Shown: in pieces, positions 3,210 through 38,804 of the stretch
Numbering within the stretch: the stretch's first letter is position 1
Layout: each line of letters starts with the position of its first letter
Source of the DNA: an uncultured Candidatus Saccharibacteria bacterium
Lineage (GTDB): Bacteria; Patescibacteriota; Minisyncoccia; Phycocordibacterales; UBA9973
Direction of reading: 5' to 3'
Assembly: GCA_964586975.1 (NCBI GenBank)
Contig: CAZPJV010000001.1
Span: 36,372 to 79,332, forward strand
DNA length: 42,961 nucleotides
Translations under genes and position numbers: made by a program
The notes under the pieces: generated by a model
Told to the model about the DNA's origin: nothing
The model's input: only the letters and a program-made list of their open reading frames with translations
Databases searched by the model: none

Positions 3210-4130
3210 ATGGCAAATCGGCACCTTTCCAGGTCAATAGTTCTCCAGACGCTTTTTGAATGGGATTTTCTGTCTGCGGAAGAAAAAGAGAAATTACCTC
3301 CCGAGGGCCTTAAAGAAATACTCCAAAGGAATTTGGCGGAATTCGCTCCCGGTTTTGAGAATGATTCTTTCGCCGCCGCGCTTTTGGAACGGACACTCCA
3401 AAAGGGCCCGGCCGTAGACGCAATCATAGAGAAAGCCGCGCCGGACTGGCCGATTGATAAAATCTCAGTCATTGACCGGAATATTTTGCGTCTGGGCCTG
3501 ACCGAGCTTCTTTTCGGCGACCGGGACGAAGTGCCGCCCAAGGTTGCAATTAACGAAGCCATTGAGCTGGCGAAAACTTTCGGCGGAGAGAACTCCGGCA
3601 AATTTGTGAATGGTGTCTTGGGCGCGGTCTACAAAGAAATCGGCGAGCCGGGCAAGGAACAAACCAGCAAACACAAAAAAAAAGACGAGCCGGTGGATGT
3701 TTCCAAACTGCCGGTGGAGAAGAAAGGCGGGGCGCTGGTGTATGCCCAAAAGGACGGCGGTATTATGTTCGCATTGGTGCACGATGTTTTCGGCTATTGG
3801 ACCATCTCCAAAGGGAGCATTGAAGAAGGAGAAAATGAAGAAGAGGCAACGGTACGAGAAATAAAAGAAGAAATCGGCCTGGATATTGAGATAGAAGAAA
3901 AACTGGGAGAAAATGAATATGTGGCTACGCACCCGGAAAAGGGCAAGAGCCTGAAGCGGGTGGTTTACTTTCTAGCCAAGAGCGAATACCGGGAATTGGT
4001 TCTGGAAAAATCCACCGGCCTGGACGGGGCCCGATGGTTTCCGGTTTCTGCCATTCCAGAATTACGAATTTACAATGACATAATCCCCCTTATCGGCAAA
4101 GCGGTGGAAATAATTAGTAGTAAAAAGTAA
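3210..4130 (+). CDS. nusB: NusB antitermination factor fused to a C-terminal Nudix hydrolase domain
   Basis: The N-terminal half carries NusB motifs ([53 protein letters not shown]). A K-rich linker follows, then the Nudix box [23 protein letters not shown] at 3813-3881. Confidence 0.85.
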
Positions 4131-6997: not shown

Positions 6998-7037
6998 TGT
7001 TATCAATTCTGACGGCCGGACAAAAGTGATAACATTA
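6995..7037. terminator. Inverted repeat TAATGTTATCA / TGATAACATTA between the convergent smc and dac-capA genes
   Basis: 11-bp perfect arms with a 21-nt loop. Each arm contains the stop codon of one of the convergent genes. Confidence 0.35.
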
Positions 7038-8930
7038 GTTTTGGACAGCTGGGAATTTTATTTTTTCCTCTTTGCCTTCCACGATGCGGTCTAGTTGGAA
7101 GACAGAGTTTAGGTAAGTGGTATTTTTTTTGATATCCATCGCGCCATCTTTCCAGAGTTTGACTTGCAACAGGAGGCCTTGCATGGTGGGCTTGCTCCAG
7201 GATTGGTCAAAGATGAAGTTGCCGAGCGAGTAAGCGATGTAGCTGTTTTTATAAACTTCCGTGTCCTGCGTCACATGCGGATGATGGCCGATGACGAGTT
7301 TGGCGCCCGCATCTACCGCGCGGTGCGCCAGATATTCCTGGCGGATGTTGTGCTTATCTTTATACTCGTCGCCCCAATGAAAAGACACGACGAGGAAGTT
7401 CACTTGGCTGGCGGCGTTTTGAATTATCTCATCAAACCGCGGGTCGCTCGCCAACAAGAGCCCGGCGGTGTCGGTTTTTGCTTCCAGCCAGTTGGGCCCC
7501 ACATCCGAAAAGCCCAGGAACCCGATTTTCATACCGTACTTTTCAATGATGGCCGGCGCTTCGGCTTCCACTTCGCTCAGGCCGCCGCCGGTATAACGAA
7601 TTTCGTTTTCCTTCAGGCGAGCCAGAGTGTCAATGTAAGCCGGACGGCCCCAGTCGCCGACATGGTTGTTGGCCAGCGACAGGACATCCAAGCCCGCACC
7701 GGCCAGCGCGGGGATGATGCCCGGGTCCATCCGGAAGGAATACAGATTTTTCTGGTCCAGGCCCTGGTCGGAGGCGGCGCCCTCCAAGTTGGCGAAGGCG
7801 ATATCGGAATTTTTCAAAAGCTTGGCCGGGATTTTTTCAAACAGCGCGGAATAATCGTTGCCGAAATTTTTTATGACCGAACTTTCCACGCCGCGGTCCA
7901 GCATCAAGTCGCCCATAAAGGCAAGAGTCACGAAACTGGGTTCGTAAATCGGCGGCAGGCCGACTTTTTCCTTGACCCAGGCGGTGGCGGCGTCTATCTG
8001 GCCGCCGTAGTAAACATATTTCTCCAAATATTTCAAAATATTTTCCACGTCCCGCTGGCGATCCCGGCTTTTTAAGAGCGTAATGGCGATGGGGCGAGTG
8101 CCCGATTTTGTCAACGGCAGGTCAAAGATGGCGATGCCTGTCTCCAGGGCGGCATTAGTGAATCCGCTCTTGCCGCCGGCGTAGCCCGGTTTGCCCAGGA
8201 AGCGGCTGATGTTGGACCAGTTATGCCTGCCGGATTTGAAACTGCGCTTGGTTGAGATTCCGAACAATTCCCCGTATTGCTCGCGAATGTAGCCCGCCAG
8301 CTTGAAAAGGTCGGCCGGAGTGGAAACATTTTTTGCGGATAGCCCGCTCGGGTCCTCGTAAACGGTTGAGACCATTAAAAGCTGTTCCGCCTGCAGGTTC
8401 ATCTGGGCCAGGAAGTTTTCGCGGCCGAAGCGCTCCGCCAGCGCCTCCGCCGCGTCGTTGCTTGATTCCAAAAGTAGGGGATAGAGCAGGTCGGTCGCTT
8501 TTATTTTTTCTCCGGCGCGCAGTCCGCCGTTCTGGCCGGAGGTGGCCACCGCTTTCTTGCTGACTGTCACCAAATCTTCCGGTGCCGCGAGCTTGCTGGC
8601 GACGAGCGCGGTCATTAATTTGGATACGGAGGCGATTGGAAGTTTTTTCTCTTGATTTTTTGCCAGGATTACTTCGCCGGTGTTAAGATCGCCCACCAGA
8701 TAGGCTTCGGCCGTGACCTTAGGCTGTGCGCCCTCGCTCTTGTTGATGTAAAAATATTGCGGTTGCGCGGGCTGGGTCGTCAATAGCTCCGCGAACATTA
8801 TTTTTTTCTTGGGCGCCGCCGCGTCGCCGGTTTTGAGAAACGACAGCAAAAAAGACGCCACGAGTACGCCACAAAGCACCGGCAAGGCGGTCCAGAAAAT
8901 AAGCCCTTTATTTTTTCTCACGAATTGCAT
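7035..8930 (-). CDS. Fusion protein: D-alanyl-D-alanine carboxypeptidase (peptidase S11) N-terminal domain plus CapA/PGA_cap-type metallophosphatase C-terminal domain
   Basis: N-terminal TM. S11 motifs are SVSK (SxxK), SSND (SxN) and KSG. CapA-like motifs are FMGDLMLDRG, ANLEGA, LANNHVGDWG, SFHWGDEY, IGHHPHV and YSLGNFIFDQ. Confidence 0.8.
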   Translation of the reverse strand: MQFVRKNKGLIFWTALPVLCGVLVASFLLSFLKTGDAAAPKKKIMFAELLTTQPAQPQYFYINKSEGAQPKVTAEAYLVGDLNTGEVILAKNQEKKLPIASVSKLMTALVASKLAAPEDLVTVSKKAVATSGQNGGLRAGEKIKATDLLYPLLLESSNDAAEALAERFGRENFLAQMNLQAEQLLMVSTVYEDPSGLSAKNVSTPADLFKLAGYIREQYGELFGISTKRSFKSGRHNWSNISRFLGKPGYAGGKSGFTNAALETGIAIFDLPLTKSGTRPIAITLLKSRDRQRDVENILKYLEKYVYYGGQIDAATAWVKEKVGLPPIYEPSFVTLAFMGDLMLDRGVESSVIKNFGNDYSALFEKIPAKLLKNSDIAFANLEGAASDQGLDQKNLYSFRMDPGIIPALAGAGLDVLSLANNHVGDWGRPAYIDTLARLKENEIRYTGGGLSEVEAEAPAIIEKYGMKIGFLGFSDVGPNWLEAKTDTAGLLLASDPRFDEIIQNAASQVNFLVVSFHWGDEYKDKHNIRQEYLAHRAVDAGAKLVIGHHPHVTQDTEVYKNSYIAYSLGNFIFDQSWSKPTMQGLLLQVKLWKDGAMDIKKNTTYLNSVFQLDRIVEGKEEKIKFPAVQN

Positions 8931-8939
8931 CTTTCTAAT

Positions 8940-10934
8940 TTATATCAAGGCGTAATCAATTGTTTTTCTCTCCAAATCCGCCGCCTGCACTTTTATTCTA
9001 ACACGGTCGCCCAAGCGGTAGGACTTCTTGGTTTTTTGTCCGCAAAACGAAAGTTTCTTTTCATCAAAAACATAAAAATCGTCCTGCATATCCCGCACCC
9101 GCACCAGTCCTTCGCACTTGGTTTCAATTTCCTCCACATACAGGCCCCATTCCGTGATGCCGCTGACGACGCCGTCAAACCGCTGCCCCTTTCTGACCGA
9201 CATATATTCCACCTGTTTGTATTTAATGGAAGCCCGTTCCGCGTCGGCGGCGCGCTTCTCCTGCTCGCTGGCGACCAGGGACATTTTTTCGTAATCCATT
9301 AATTTGTCGGCGGGGATTTTTTTGTCGGCTAGGCGGTTTTCCAGCAACCGGTGCACCAGGATGTCCGGGTAGCGACGGATAGGGGAAGTGAAGTGAGTGT
9401 AATATTCAAAGGCCAGACCGTAGTGCCCGATGTTCTTGGTGGAGTAGACGGCTTTGGCCATGGAGCGAATGACCGCGCGGTGCACGGTGTCTGCCATGGT
9501 GTCTTCTTTCCTCTTCAACTCCCGCAACAGCCTGTTGATTTCTCGGCTTGGGATAATTCCGGCCACTAGCGGGACTCGCAATCCCAAACTCTGGAGAAAT
9601 AGCGCCAAGTCGGCCATTTTTTCTTTGCTGGGAAAATCATGCACGCGGTAGATGGCGATGTTCTCGGGCAGGCCTTTTCTTTTTTCGGACGAAAGCGCCC
9701 GCGCGACTTTTTTGTTGGCCAAGAGCATGAATTCCTCAATCAGGCGATTGGAATCTCCGCGCTCTTTTATTTCCACTTTTAGCGGCTGGCCGTCTTTGTC
9801 CAGCACAAACCGGACTTCATCCTGGTCCAGCGAAATCGCGCCCTGGGCGAATCTTTCCTTGGCTAATTTTTTCGCCAAATTATTCAAGATAGCAAGTTCT
9901 GCATGCAACGGCGCCGCAGGTTCCCGAATTGATTTCTCCGCTTCGGCATAGGTGAATCTTTTTTGGGAACGGATGACCGCGCGGCCGAACCATTCGCTTT
10001 TCACGCCGGCGTTTTTGTCCATTGTAAAAATGGCGCTCATGGTCAGGCGGTCTTGATTGGGAACCAGAGAGCACAAATCGTTGGACAATATTTCCGGCAG
10101 CATCGGTATGGTGCGGTCCACTAGGTAAACAGAAGTGCCCCGGTTGCGGGCCTCCTCGTCCAACAGGCTACCGGGCCGGACGTAATGCGACACGTCCGCG
10201 ATGTGGATACCGATTTCATATAAGGGGTAATTAGACCCCCTCGCCCTGACCTGGGTCGGGGCACTCCCCCTTGGCAGGGGGAGAACACGAAAGGAAATTG
10301 CGTCGTCGAAATCTTTTGCGTCGCTTGGGTCAATGGTGAAAGTCAAAACTTTTCTGAAATCTCGGCGTCCCAGATAATCGCTTTCTTTTATCCCGCTAGT
10401 TTTTATTTTTTTTGCTTCCTCTTCAACTTTATTTGGCAGTTCGGAGTCAAAACCCTTTTCCATGGCGATGGAATGCATTTCCGTGTCATTGTCGCCTGGC
10501 CAGCCAAGAACTTTGATTATTTTACCTTCCGGGGCCTTGCGCGGGTCGCTCCAAGAGACTATTTCCGCGAAAACTTTCTGACCGGATTTTGCGCCGCCGA
10601 GCATTGTCGGCGGTATCAGAATATCCGTATACATTTTCGTATCATCCGGCTTCAAAAAGAATATATCTTTTTCTTTTTCTAAAACTCCGGCGAAACGCAC
10701 TTTCGCGCGGGCAATTATTTTTGACACCTCGGCGGTTTGCCGGCCTCGGCCTTTGGGATGCAGGATGATTTCCACCAAGTCTCCGTGCAGAGCGGTGTTT
10801 AAGTGCCGGAAATCAATCTCCGGGTCCTGCCCCTTGTTTTTTTCAGCCCCCACTGCGACATAACCGGTGCCCTTGGAGGAGATGGAAACAACTCCTTCCA
10901 GCCTATGAGGTCCTCTGAGTTTTTTCTTTTTCAC
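8940..10934 (-). CDS. rnr: Ribonuclease R (GTG start)
   Basis: RNB domain motifs FTIDPSDAKDFDDAISF, HIADVSHYV, YRVHD and HYGLAFEYYTHFTSPIRRYPD, plus a C-terminal S1 domain. It contains an in-frame GC-rich palindromic insert (listed as a separate feature). Confidence 0.9.
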   Translation of the reverse strand: MKKKKLRGPHRLEGVVSISSKGTGYVAVGAEKNKGQDPEIDFRHLNTALHGDLVEIILHPKGRGRQTAEVSKIIARAKVRFAGVLEKEKDIFFLKPDDTKMYTDILIPPTMLGGAKSGQKVFAEIVSWSDPRKAPEGKIIKVLGWPGDNDTEMHSIAMEKGFDSELPNKVEEEAKKIKTSGIKESDYLGRRDFRKVLTFTIDPSDAKDFDDAISFRVLPLPRGSAPTQVRARGSNYPLYEIGIHIADVSHYVRPGSLLDEEARNRGTSVYLVDRTIPMLPEILSNDLCSLVPNQDRLTMSAIFTMDKNAGVKSEWFGRAVIRSQKRFTYAEAEKSIREPAAPLHAELAILNNLAKKLAKERFAQGAISLDQDEVRFVLDKDGQPLKVEIKERGDSNRLIEEFMLLANKKVARALSSEKRKGLPENIAIYRVHDFPSKEKMADLALFLQSLGLRVPLVAGIIPSREINRLLRELKRKEDTMADTVHRAVIRSMAKAVYSTKNIGHYGLAFEYYTHFTSPIRRYPDILVHRLLENRLADKKIPADKLMDYEKMSLVASEQEKRAADAERASIKYKQVEYMSVRKGQRFDGVVSGITEWGLYVEEIETKCEGLVRVRDMQDDFYVFDEKKLSFCGQKTKKSYRLGDRVRIKVQAADLERKTIDYALI
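10223..10283. repeat. GC-rich triple-hairpin element embedded in frame in rnr
   Basis: Three hairpins: AGGGG..CCCCT, GCCCTGAC-ctgg-GTCGGGGC and CTCCCCC-ttggca-GGGGGAG. It encodes LPLPRGSAPTQVRARGSN between the DFDDA and HIADVS motifs. Confidence 0.6.
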
Positions 10935-11778: not shown

Positions 11779-12465
11779 ATGCGTTTTCATGTAATTACAA
11801 TTTTTCCGGAAATGTTTTATTCTTATTTAAAAGAGTCCATTATCGGCCGGGCGGTGAAGGCGAAAAAGATTTCCATCAAATTTTATAATCCTTGGGATTT
11901 TTGCCCCAAGCAGGAGCGGGTGGATGCTCGGCCCTATGGCGGCGGTCCCGGCATGGTGTTGCGACCGGAATTTATAATCAAAGCTATAGTGAAAGCTTTG
12001 AAGAATGCTAACTCCTCCCAAACCCTCCCCTTACGTAAGGGGAGGGCAAAGGGTGGGGTTATGATAATCAATTTTGTGCCCAGCGCCGAAAAATTCAATA
12101 CGGCGTTTGCCAAAAAATTTGCAAAAAAATACCGAGATATCATTTTAATTGCCGGCCGGTATGAAGGCATTGATGCCCGGGTAGATAAAATTTTCAAAAC
12201 TAAAAAAATATCCGTAGGGGATTATGTCCTTACCGGCGGGGAACTGCCGGCGATGATTTTAATTGATTGTATTGCCCGCCAAGTGCCGGGAGTTCTGGGC
12301 AAGCATGAATCTTTAGAAGAAGAGAGGGTCTCAAGCAGCGAAGTTTACACTCGCCCGGAAGTTCTAAAATATCGCGGGAAAAATTATCGCGTGCCTAACG
12401 TGCTCCTTTCCGGTAACCATGCTAAAATTAATGCATGGAAGCAAAACAAACAAAAATCAGGATAG
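11779..12465 (+). CDS. trmD: tRNA (guanine37-N1)-methyltransferase
   Basis: VITIFPEMF, DARPYGGGPGMVL, AGRYEGIDARV, GDYVLTGGELPAM and LLSGNHAKI. It contains a 51-nt in-frame palindromic insert. Confidence 0.95.
   Translation: MRFHVITIFPEMFYSYLKESIIGRAVKAKKISIKFYNPWDFCPKQERVDARPYGGGPGMVLRPEFIIKAIVKALKNANSSQTLPLRKGRAKGGVMIINFVPSAEKFNTAFAKKFAKKYRDIILIAGRYEGIDARVDKIFKTKKISVGDYVLTGGELPAMILIDCIARQVPGVLGKHESLEEERVSSSEVYTRPEVLKYRGKNYRVPNVLLSGNHAKINAWKQNKQKSG
12010..12060. repeat. 51-nt GC-rich palindromic element embedded in frame in trmD
   Basis: Perfect 24-nt palindrome CCCTCCCCTTAC|GTAAGGGGAGGG at 12023-12046, with imperfectly complementary flanks. It encodes NSSQTLPLRKGRAKGGV. Confidence 0.7.
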
Positions 12466-13267: not shown

Positions 13268-13305
13268 TTGTGTATAAATCCAGCATATGCTAAAATATTA
13301 CACAA
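13268..13305 (+). promoter_or_regulatory. Palindromic box 1 (TTGTGTA-N-CAGCATATGCTA-N-TACACAA) containing a full promoter (TTGTGT-17 nt-TAAAAT)
   Basis: 38-nt near-palindrome immediately upstream of ATG 13310. It is 31/38 identical to box 2. Confidence 0.55.
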
Positions 13306-13916: not shown

Positions 13917-13954
13917 TTGTGTAAGATTTCAGCATATGCTAGAATTATACACAA
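13917..13954 (+). promoter_or_regulatory. Palindromic box 2, a second copy of box 1 with -10 TATGCTAGAAT
   Basis: TTGTGTAAGATTTCAGCATATGCTAGAATTATACACAA, 5 nt after the wHTH gene stop and upstream of rpoB. Confidence 0.5.
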
Positions 13955-24311: not shown

Positions 24312-24821
24312 ATGCACAAGAAAGACTCTTCCACCCCGTCTCGACTAAAGTCGAGCCACCCCTCAAGAGGGGAACATCCACCCCGGCGCAAGCGTCACCC
24401 CTCAAGAGGGGAATTATGGAATCCAAAATCTTTATATCCCTATTGGGAAATTCCTAAAAATAAACTTTTGATTGAAAGAGCAAAAGAATTAAGAAGAGCC
24501 GGAAATCTATCAGAAGTAATTTTTTGGCAAACCTTCAAAGATAAAAACAAGTTCGGTTTTGATATTGATCGGCAAGTTATTGTAGGCAATTACATCGTAG
24601 ACTTTTTTATTCCGGAACTAGGTTTGGTTTTTGAGATAGATGGCTCAAGTCATGGCGATAAAATAGAGTACGATGCAGAACGAGACGCTTTTATGACAGA
24701 TTTAAATTTGCGCGTAATTAGAATTCCCGATGTTGATATCAAGAAAAACATAGGTGGTGTCTATAATTTTGTTCTGGAAACTGTAGAAAAAAGAAAGAAC
24801 GCATTAAGATTCCCCTCTTGA
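24312..24821 (+). CDS. DUF559 (Vsr/restriction-endonuclease-like fold) protein; true start uncertain
   Basis: Core motif GNYIVDFFIPELGLVFEIDGSSHGDKIEYDAERDAFMTDLNLRVIRIP. The first ~35 codons and the TGA stop lie inside REP-like modules. No internal ATG precedes the conserved core. Confidence 0.65.
   Translation: MHKKDSSTPSRLKSSHPSRGEHPPRRKRHPSRGELWNPKSLYPYWEIPKNKLLIERAKELRRAGNLSEVIFWQTFKDKNKFGFDIDRQVIVGNYIVDFFIPELGLVFEIDGSSHGDKIEYDAERDAFMTDLNLRVIRIPDVDIKKNIGGVYNFVLETVEKRKNALRFPS
24330..24414 (+). repeat. Two tandem REP-like modules: TCCACCCCG + variable hairpin + CACCCCTCAAGAGGGGAA
   Basis: Module 1 (24330-24374) has the variable hairpin CTCGAC-taaa-GTCGAG. Module 2 (24378-24414) has GCGCAAGCG. 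The 18-nt terminal hairpin is identical in both. Confidence 0.75.
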
Positions 24822-24852
24822 GGGGTGCCCCCGTCTGACGGGGGCGGGGTGG
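24809..24852 (-). repeat. Inverted third copy of the REP-like module; probably also a bidirectional terminator
   Basis: The reverse complement reads CCACCCCG + CCCCCG-tcaga-CGGGGG + CACCCCTCAAGAGGGGAAT. A 19-nt stretch is identical to 24396-24414. It lies between the stops of the DUF559 gene and the dsbA-like gene. Confidence 0.75.
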
Positions 24853-38324: not shown

Positions 38325-38424
38325 AGCCGGAAGAGGGATTCGAACCCTCGACCTTCGCTTTACAAAAGCGTTGCTCCCCGCCCGCAACGCTCTCGCTTGC
38401 GAGGCGGGCGGGTACCAACTGAGC
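38325..38424 (-). pseudogene. tRNA-Thr(UGU)-like 3' portion: D-arm with a 36-nt hairpin insert, anticodon arm, T-arm and acceptor 3' strand TTCCGGC; the acceptor 5' strand is missing
   Basis: The minus strand reads GCTCAGTTGGTA[CCCGCCCGCCTCGCAAGCGAGAGCGTTGCGGGCGGG]GAGCAACGCTTTTGTAAAGCGAAGGTCGAGGGTTCGAATCCCTCTTCCGGCT. Confidence 0.55.
38371..38424. repeat. 54-bp direct repeat, left copy (identical to 38742-38795)
   Basis: ttgctccccgcccgcaacgctctcgcttgcgaggcgggcgggtaccaactgagc occurs twice, 371 bp apart. Confidence 0.9.
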
Positions 38425-38494
38425 CGGTGGGGGGATTCGAACCCTCGACCTTCGCTTTACAAAAGCGTTGCTCTGCCAACTGAGCTACACCGGC
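38422..38494 (-). tRNA. tRNA-Thr (anticodon UGU), canonical 73 nt, no encoded CCA
   Basis: Hand-folded. The acceptor is GCCGGTG/CACCGGC and the D-arm is GCTC-AGTTGGCA-GAGC. The anticodon arm is ACGCT-TTTGTAA-AGCGA. The variable loop is AGGTC and the T-arm is GAGGG-TTCGAAT-CCCCC (one A:C mismatch). Confidence 0.85.
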
Positions 38495-38495
38495 T

Positions 38496-38732
38496 TCATA
38501 TTCTGCTCTTTAAAAATCTTCTACCGTATCCTGTTTTAAAGTATCTTTCTCTCTTTATAGCATTTTCCTTACTCGTACACGCTTCATAGTACACTAATTT
38601 TAGAGGTCTTCTATTTTTAGTAGCGGCTACTTTACCTCTATTATGATCCAATATACGTAACTTTAGATTATTAGTCCAGCCTATATACAATTTATAATCT
38701 ATATTGCTTTGTAGAACATAAGTGTAGTTCAT
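38496..38732 (-). CDS. Small GIY-YIG nuclease-domain protein (COG2827/UPF0213-like), copy 2
   Basis: MNYTYVLQS..KLYIGWTNNLKLRILDHN..RERYFK, a paralogue of the 35511-35777 product. The stop lies 1 nt before the tRNA-Thr 5' end, and the start lies 10 nt after the 54-bp repeat. Confidence 0.7.
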   Translation of the reverse strand: MNYTYVLQSNIDYKLYIGWTNNLKLRILDHNRGKVAATKNRRPLKLVYYEACTSKENAIKRERYFKTGYGRRFLKSRI

Positions 38733-38741
38733 ATTATAATT

Positions 38742-38795
38742 TTGCTCCCCGCCCGCAACGCTCTCGCTTGCGAGGCGGGCGGGTACCAACTGAGC
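38742..38795. repeat. 54-bp direct repeat, right copy
   Basis: Identical to 38371-38424. Confidence 0.9.
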
Positions 38796-38804
38796 TATTC
38801 CGGC
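38742..38804 (-). pseudogene. tRNA 5' portion: acceptor 5' strand GCCGGAA, D-arm with the same 36-nt hairpin insert
   Basis: The minus strand reads GCCGGAATAGCTCAGTTGGTA[36-nt hairpin]GAGCAA. GCCGGAA is exactly complementary to TTCCGGC at 38326-38332. Confidence 0.55.

Follow-up and report, generated by a model that had tools for sequence, protein, structure and literature searches.

A putative triplex-motif repeat lies in frame in a predicted surface loop of TrmD in a groundwater member of the Paceibacterota

Introduction

The trmD gene of an ultra-small, uncultured groundwater bacterium of the Paceibacterota contains a 51-nt GC-rich element that is open in the reading frame of its host gene and that, judged by its architecture, would belong to the G/C-rich intrastrand triplex-motif class of repeats (BoxC/PIT/TMECO). 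The gene lies in a 42,961-nt stretch of contig CAZPJV010000001.1, referred to here as the window. Repeats of this class were already recognised in the 1990s but have had neither an origin nor a partner enzyme nor a function assigned to them, and have been described as intergenic; the case reported here places such a repeat inside the ORF (open reading frame) for an essential, deeply conserved SPOUT methyltransferase. The element recurs homoplastically at the same loop of TrmD in other bacteria, and the loop is also the site of many unrelated inserts. These observations suggest that a solo triplex-motif repeat was probably written into a surface loop of TrmD and is translated there, being selfish or structural at the DNA level rather than a module of the protein.

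Results

The trmD element and its architecture

The host gene (11779-12465, plus strand) encodes a tRNA m1G37 methyltransferase of 228 aa, identified as TrmD by Pfam (PF01746, E = 2.8e-34), by solved TrmD structures in the PDB (E about 1e-42 to 6e-42) and by an AlphaFold2 model. To match the homologues, its start was placed at the ATG from which translation opens with MRFH..., and the gene order at the locus, rpsP / KH-protein / trmD, is the usual one. By the names that the nearest homologues carry, the host belongs to the Paceibacterota/Minisyncoccia. The element occupies positions 12010-12060 of the plus strand (context at 12004-12066: ...AATGCT AACTCCTCCCAAACCCTCCCCTTACGTAAGGGGAGGGCAAAGGGTGGGGTT ATGATA...) and makes up 17 codons in the TrmD frame, encoding NSSQTLPLRKGRAKGGV at residues 78-94 (numbered from the ATG at 11779), for which the peptides NANSSQTLPLR and GGVMIINFVPSAEK would be markers. 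Within it lies the perfect 24-nt palindrome reported in a preliminary description of this DNA, CCCTCCCCTTAC|GTAAGGGGAGGG (12023-12046), which is the longest perfect GC-rich hairpin stem of the window. The palindrome has a single match in the window even when up to 3 mismatches are allowed, and none of 100 dinucleotide shuffles gave one. RNA folding of 12000-12070 yielded -34.6 kcal/mol (z = -4.8), a stability that was equalled in none of 200 shuffles.

Along the plus strand the element is ordered C2-C1-loop-G1-G2, that is, as a hairpin with a mirror-repeat third block on both sides. The central hairpin is formed by the pyrimidine arm C1 (CCCTCCCC, 12023-12030) and the purine arm G1 (GGGGAGGG, 12039-12046), which enclose the loop region TTACGTAA (12031-12038); the outer TTA/TAA of this region pair as well, completing the 24-nt palindrome. 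On the downstream side, the block G2 (GGGTGGGG, 12051-12058) is the mirror of G1 with T opposite A; reversed against G1, it agrees with the rules of a purine-motif triplex at 8/8 positions, or at 9/9 with the extended stem, and is a candidate third strand. On the upstream side, the block C2 (CTCCTCCC, 12012-12019) reads on the bottom strand as GGGAGGAG, the mirror third block of a minus-strand triplex motif that spans 12011-12046 and scores 7/8, with 1 mismatch. The preliminary description had taken these flanks for imperfectly pairing arms, a view that the mirror repeats replace. As Watson-Crick arms the flanks contain a T:T mismatch and a T:G pair, and they pair poorly because the element is a two-sided triplex motif in which the flanks mirror the stem.

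Comparison with known repeat families

The BoxC, PIT and TMECO repeats are G/C-rich intrastrand triplex motifs (Holder et al. 2015, NAR 43:10126, PMC4666352). Like the trmD element, they combine a C-rich stem with its Watson-Crick G-rich partner and with a further G-rich block that mirrors the latter (class II purine motif), with short loops, and some copies are 'palindromic', carrying the motif on both strands. They are widespread and abundant in Cyanobacteria and Proteobacteria, which matches the scan for the trmD core described below, and have no known association with a transposase. Unlike TMECO, the trmD element has stems of 8-9 nt that are broken by a single A/T position, together with a loop of the form TTAnTAA, and its triplex is predicted from a sequence rule. 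Furthermore, whereas TMECO in E. coli is 'always located intergenically' (PMC4666352), the copies described here lie in frame within trmD and rnr, and the host belongs to the Paceibacterota. No account of in-frame BoxC-type motifs was found in the literature searched.

The preliminary description likened the element to the Rickettsia palindromic elements (RPEs), which are about 100-150 bp long and are known from Rickettsia only. RPEs are palindromic repeats that lie in frame in housekeeping genes (Ogata et al. 2000, summarised in PMC10969869). The likeness holds for behaviour, in that the trmD element is likewise inserted in frame, keeps the ORF open and adds a peptide that would be tolerated in a surface region. 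It does not extend to family membership, because the element is 51 nt long, resides in the Paceibacterota and has the mirror blocks of a triplex-type architecture, differences that set it apart from RPEs by description and not by comparison of consensus sequences. It would be an RPE-like translated selfish repeat and not an RPE.

A further parallel is offered by the REP/REPIN repeats and their RAYT enzymes, in which short GC-rich hairpin repeats often form inverted doublets (Bertels & Rainey 2011, PMC3116915). In both systems, non-autonomous repeats are tied to a single dedicated enzyme gene that is flanked by repeats. Unlike in REP/REPIN systems, the bracketed gene here encodes a DUF559 nuclease of the PD-(D/E)XK type, and REPs are extragenic by definition. 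About 25 ORFs of the window were compared with Pfam, and none gave a Y1_Tnp match, as would mark a Y1/RAYT transposase.

Presence and absence among TrmD relatives

An alignment of TrmD orthologues, the comparison proposed in the preliminary description, showed that among the best 120 homologues the four TrmDs closest to that of the window (P0003, P0006, P0002 and P0004; 78-86% identical) lack the segment. In the DNA of empty sites (L162 and L003), an 18-nt Lys-rich loop, TCCAAAACCAAACCGCTT, stands in place of the element, and alignment with H. influenzae TrmD leaves 13 gap positions at the insert. The idea of a 17-codon insertion is thus borne out as far as extra DNA read through in frame is concerned, and needs correction in its size: the protein is 13 codons longer than its nearest empty-site relatives, a net gain of 39 nt, not 51. 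It follows that some 12 nt of the original loop have been lost or overwritten.

Copies of 51 nt at the same codons are present in P0005 (L001 and L002, from two ENA samples), P0030 (L163) and P0013 (L004), and are 92%, 78% and 75% identical, respectively, to the element of the window. The remainder of trmD in these carriers is 67%, 69% and 68% identical to the window's gene, with 42-48% identity at third codon positions, and the likeness of the element copies to the window trmD stops no more than 2 nt beyond the element. Two possible sources of the sequence were considered and rejected. A patch transferred from another trmD does not fit the similarity to L001, which ends within 2 nt of the element. 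An origin of the right half of the palindrome as an inverted copy of the host's left flank does not fit the empty-site sequence, which when reverse-complemented is unlike that half; it is further ruled out by the match of the whole element to copies in unrelated genes.

In a maximum-likelihood tree of 118 TrmDs, constructed with the loop removed, the window TrmD falls in a group with the four close relatives that lack the insert (support 90). The remaining carriers of the element (together with the window, family A) are found in three other places. The four family-A carriers need 4 changes on this tree, at least 3 of which are forced by well-supported branches, and the approximately unbiased (AU) test rejects the carriers as one clade (p = 0.0007).

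The TrmD loop as a hot spot for unrelated inserts

Among the 118 TrmDs, which are from the Paceibacterota, 56 possess a short Lys-rich loop and the others carry one of at least ten unrelated inserts, 10-30 residues in length. Every insert family is scattered on the TrmD tree, with 49 changes where 10 would suffice, and pairs of TrmDs that are 92-96% identical differ through replacement of the loop. Vertical descent does not account for this distribution of different hairpin repeats. The boundaries of the insert families are alike, each beginning after a 14-residue helix and ending before an (I/V)I(N/L)F strand. This evidence for a hot spot, together with the homoplasy, is the new part of the analysis.

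When the TrmD-loop inserts are read as DNA, most form hairpins. The insert of family E (L166) is BoxC-like (CCTCACCCC..CCCCTCTCC..GGAGAGGGG..GGGGTGAGGGG, -47.5 kcal/mol), that of family B (L164) folds into a long hairpin (-38 kcal/mol), that of family C (L132) into a hairpin, and an unclassed insert (L134) into two GC-rich hairpins. Family G (L128) is a hairpin unit with nearly the same sequence as the left unit of the DUF559 gene in the window, described below. Structure is weak in family F (L167) and not significant in family D (L165), and family H (L129 and L130) consists of AT-rich relatives that have no GC hairpin and in which a tandem heptamer, (ACGAATT)x3, encodes NYELRI.

Position of the element in the protein and sequencing support

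The AlphaFold2 model of the window TrmD has a mean pLDDT of 72.6 and a TM-score of 0.63 to TrmD structures. It comprises a helix at residues 63-76, a coil at 77-93 and a strand at 94-105, with pLDDT below 50 at residues 86-91. The insert is thus modelled as a low-confidence surface loop between helix and strand, in keeping with the surface loops in which, according to the preliminary description, Rickettsia palindromic elements are tolerated. The strand at 94-105 leads into an FVPSAE loop, whose aligned counterpart in H. influenzae TrmD, YLSPQG, is part of the S-adenosylmethionine (AdoMet) pocket; the insert would therefore be located at the far end of this strand. That the element is translated may be inferred from its open frame and from the multiple-of-three length found in all in-gene copies.

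The sequencing runs in which the stretch is present come from groundwater metagenomes. Logan contigs of four of these runs show the insert-bearing form only, at 10-82x, and include no contig that joins the flanks without the insert, Logan contigs being such that rare variants are dropped.

Related elements in other genes and genomes

A generic finder of triplex motifs returned exactly five sites in the 43-kb window (one in trmD, one in the RNase R gene and three around a DUF559 gene) and 0 in 20 shuffles. The RNase R site (10235-10283, minus strand), within a gene at 8940-10934, is a one-sided motif whose second loop contains a nested hairpin: CTCCCCC TGCCAA GGGGGAG is followed by the nested hairpin and then by GAGGGGG. 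It too is in frame, giving the peptide ..LPLPRGSAPTQVRARGS.., and, relative to B. subtilis RNase R (8cdu), lengthens the segment from the DDAI motif to the IADVSHY motif by about 14 residues (..APTQVRARGSNYPL..).

The core of the trmD element, defined as CCCTCCCCTTA N0-3 TAAGGGGAGG, was sought in one genome per species and was found in at least 120 stretches. The matches listed include Cyanobacteria, Geobacter and its relatives, Nitrospirota, several lineages of the candidate phyla radiation and other phyla, with numerous copies in single genomes of Microcoleus and Tychonema. At 101 of the 127 core sites among these matches, the third block on at least one side mirrors the purine arm (A/T opposite A) with a score of at least 7/8, which is reached by 0.7% of random positions. 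There is no sign of enrichment in phages, a scan of 2.9 million viral contigs having returned 12 stretches.

Related elements are also present in RuvB, UvrB, RF2, MnmA, Fmt, XseA, GatC and PheT of other genomes. The in-frame core lengthens RuvB (L010) by about 29 residues and RF2 (L068) by about 17 relative to solved structures. In UvrB, for which the structure alignment is partial only, it occurs at one site in L070 and L074 and at another in L123. Other in-frame copies reside in XseA (L048), MnmA (L101), GatC (L113), the B5 domain of PheT (L019) and the linker of a MacB-like transporter (L028), and Fmt of a member of the Doudnabacteria (L046) holds three elements. The same core DNA is encountered in differing reading frames, in differing proteins and between genes. 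In fmt of L046 and pheT of L019, two to three in-frame triplex-motif or hairpin units stand side by side, as in PPLSLRGGVPPLNLRGGEGEL of Fmt.

Association with DUF559 nuclease genes

The three remaining triplex-motif units of the window surround a DUF559 gene (24312-24821, plus strand; PF04480, E = 5e-21), which encodes a Vsr-like nuclease fold and lies directly after rpoD. Two units on its 5' side (24332-24372 and 24379-24411, minus strand; 24332-24411 together) are inverted with respect to the 3' unit and, in translation, form the N-terminus of the protein (HPSRGE..HPSRGE). The unit at the 3' end (24812-24851, plus strand) consists of CCCCTC TT GAGGGG, a nested hairpin and then GGGGTG. All three have nested hairpins.

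When all loci were searched iteratively with a profile (jackhmmer), DUF559 and the core were found together in five, in four of which (L017, L054, L076 and L110) the gene lies no more than 250 nt from the element and is bracketed by copies. The trmD copy is solo and carries no cargo. Given this association, the DUF559 nucleases could conceivably be the enzymes that mobilise the repeats whose copies bracket them, a suggestion that we make with considerable reservation. Recombination between the hairpins at the inverted ends of a DUF559 cassette would leave a two-sided solo unit like that of trmD. In the Geobacter locus (L017), a repeat of about 230 nt, composed of the triplex motif and a second hairpin, is present in three direct copies around the DUF559 gene.

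Discussion

If a solo triplex-motif repeat was written into TrmD, as we consider probable, it would have arrived in the helix-to-strand loop after the lineage had split from its closest sampled relatives. It could have done so either by a fresh insertion or by being copied over an older hairpin that already occupied the slot, and both modes fit. The hairpin-free loops of the four nearest relatives incline us towards a gain, and the shared boundaries, the loop replacement in close pairs and the net gain of 39 nt incline us towards templated overwriting. Once in place, the element would simply be translated, and several of its properties may allow it to persist: its all-pyrimidine and all-purine arms cannot hold stop codons, with TAA in one frame of the loop only; its length is divisible by three; the frame in use encodes a peptide that is flexible and basic, with an abundance of Pro, Gly, Lys and Arg; and the loop is situated at the end of the β-strand opposite the AdoMet-binding knot.

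Several observations weigh against this account. Relative to empty-site relatives there is no target-site duplication, and a gain of 39 nt is ill-suited to simple cut-and-paste insertion. As regards the further copies in the genome that the preliminary description had asked for, the 43-kb window has no second copy of the trmD variant, its other four units being different sequence variants; the DUF559 cassette of the window has another motif variant and is therefore not the direct parent of the trmD copy. The four source metagenomes, compared with the 56-nt element alone, yielded only one related contig, by a method that is insensitive to short diverged copies, and this contig probably represents another organism, as its depth ratio to the contig of the window varies between runs. 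The strict TMECO consensus, CCCTCNCCC N3-6 GGGNGAGGG N3 GGGNGAGGG, gave 0 regular-expression matches on both strands of the window and all loci, so that the trmD element is related by architecture and is not TMECO proper. A sister relation between the window and P0005, which forms a long branch, is not rejected by the AU test (p = 0.109), and the runs containing the stretch are DNA runs only. Finally, the four family-A copies have identical boundaries and orientation, as would also be expected from one old insertion that was kept or overwritten.

Such an old insertion would mean that a hairpin slot was gained once, early in the history of Paceibacterota TrmD, and that its content was thereafter replaced, through gene conversion or templated patch repair, from the repeat families present in each genome, and was at times deleted. 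The 51 nt would then be a converted tract. This scenario draws on the boundaries common to all insert families, the scatter of each family on the tree, the 92-96% identical TrmD pairs that show loop replacement and no clean insertion, and the net gain of 39 nt for a 51-nt element without target duplication. However, the short Lys-rich loops of the four closest relatives show no trace of a hairpin, and a gain in the lineage of the window is therefore the simplest account. Moreover, neither the window nor, at more than 80% likeness, the source metagenomes yielded a donor of this variant, save the one contig with the run-variable depth ratio. We regard an old slot as rather unlikely.

Selection on the protein, in which a basic loop (RKGRAK) would serve, for example, in contacts with the tRNA backbone and the palindrome would be incidental, is very improbable. 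A Lys/Arg-rich loop is indeed found in relatives with and without inserts, and the frame in use supplies four basic residues, yet conservation is at the nucleotide level and includes synonymous sites (92%, versus 48% at third positions elsewhere), the same DNA is used in other frames, in other proteins and between genes, and the closest relatives manage without the insert; the AlphaFold2 model, for its part, assigns the loop no defined structure. Still less credence is due to the notion that the segment is missing from the mature protein, through removal from the mRNA or through ribosome bypass of the kind known from the T4 gene 60 hop and the mitochondrial 'byp' elements. Bypass elements are roughly the size of the trmD element, and a hairpin of -34.6 kcal/mol does lie within the coding region; against this, the frame is open through the element in trmD and in every in-gene copy examined, with lengths that are multiples of three, a constraint that a skipped segment would lack, and the element contains neither an in-frame stop nor matching take-off and landing codons. 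An assembly or chimera artefact, which palindromes are able to cause, has a negligible chance of being the explanation: contigs from four runs, at depths of 10-82x, agree in this sequence and offer no other form of it, and near-identical elements occupy the same site in independent assemblies from other samples (L001 and L002, L004, L163).

On a larger scale, one may speculate that triplex-motif repeats and DUF559 nucleases constitute an unrecognised class of selfish elements spanning phyla, whose cargo-less derivatives are written into A-rich, Lys-coding surface loops of essential genes by structure-directed cutting and templated repair, with the TrmD loop as a recurrent landing pad that was hit or overwritten independently by at least ten hairpin families. 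We think it unlikely that this proposal holds; if true, the turnover of protein loops in ultra-small bacteria would be largely a by-product of DNA-level parasites. DUF559 provides a candidate enzyme for the movement of the repeats, and the TrmD loop, with its short gene, one loop and many independent events, is a clean natural system in which to follow that movement. For the annotation and phylogenetics of Patescibacteria proteins a caution follows, in that their 'lineage-specific insertions' may represent parasitic DNA instead of adaptations.

Other features of the window

The window contains several features apart from the triplex-motif units. Inverted repeats of 38 nt that are 89% complementary (13268-13305 and 13917-13954) enclose an ORF for a PaaX_M protein, which has a Cas2-like domain, and the stretch around this ORF at 12-14 kb is AT-rich, with 37.5% GC versus about 48-50% elsewhere. 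Unusual domain fusions are encoded at 3210-4130 (NusB and Nudix) and at 7035-8930 (D-Ala-D-Ala carboxypeptidase of the S11 type and PGA_cap). A tRNA-Thr gene (38325-38804, minus strand) has in its D-loop a 36-nt GC palindrome. The gene is interrupted by a unit of about 370 nt; this unit comprises an intact tRNA-Thr(TGT) as well as a small ORF of GIY-YIG-like type, and is bounded by direct repeats of 54 nt.
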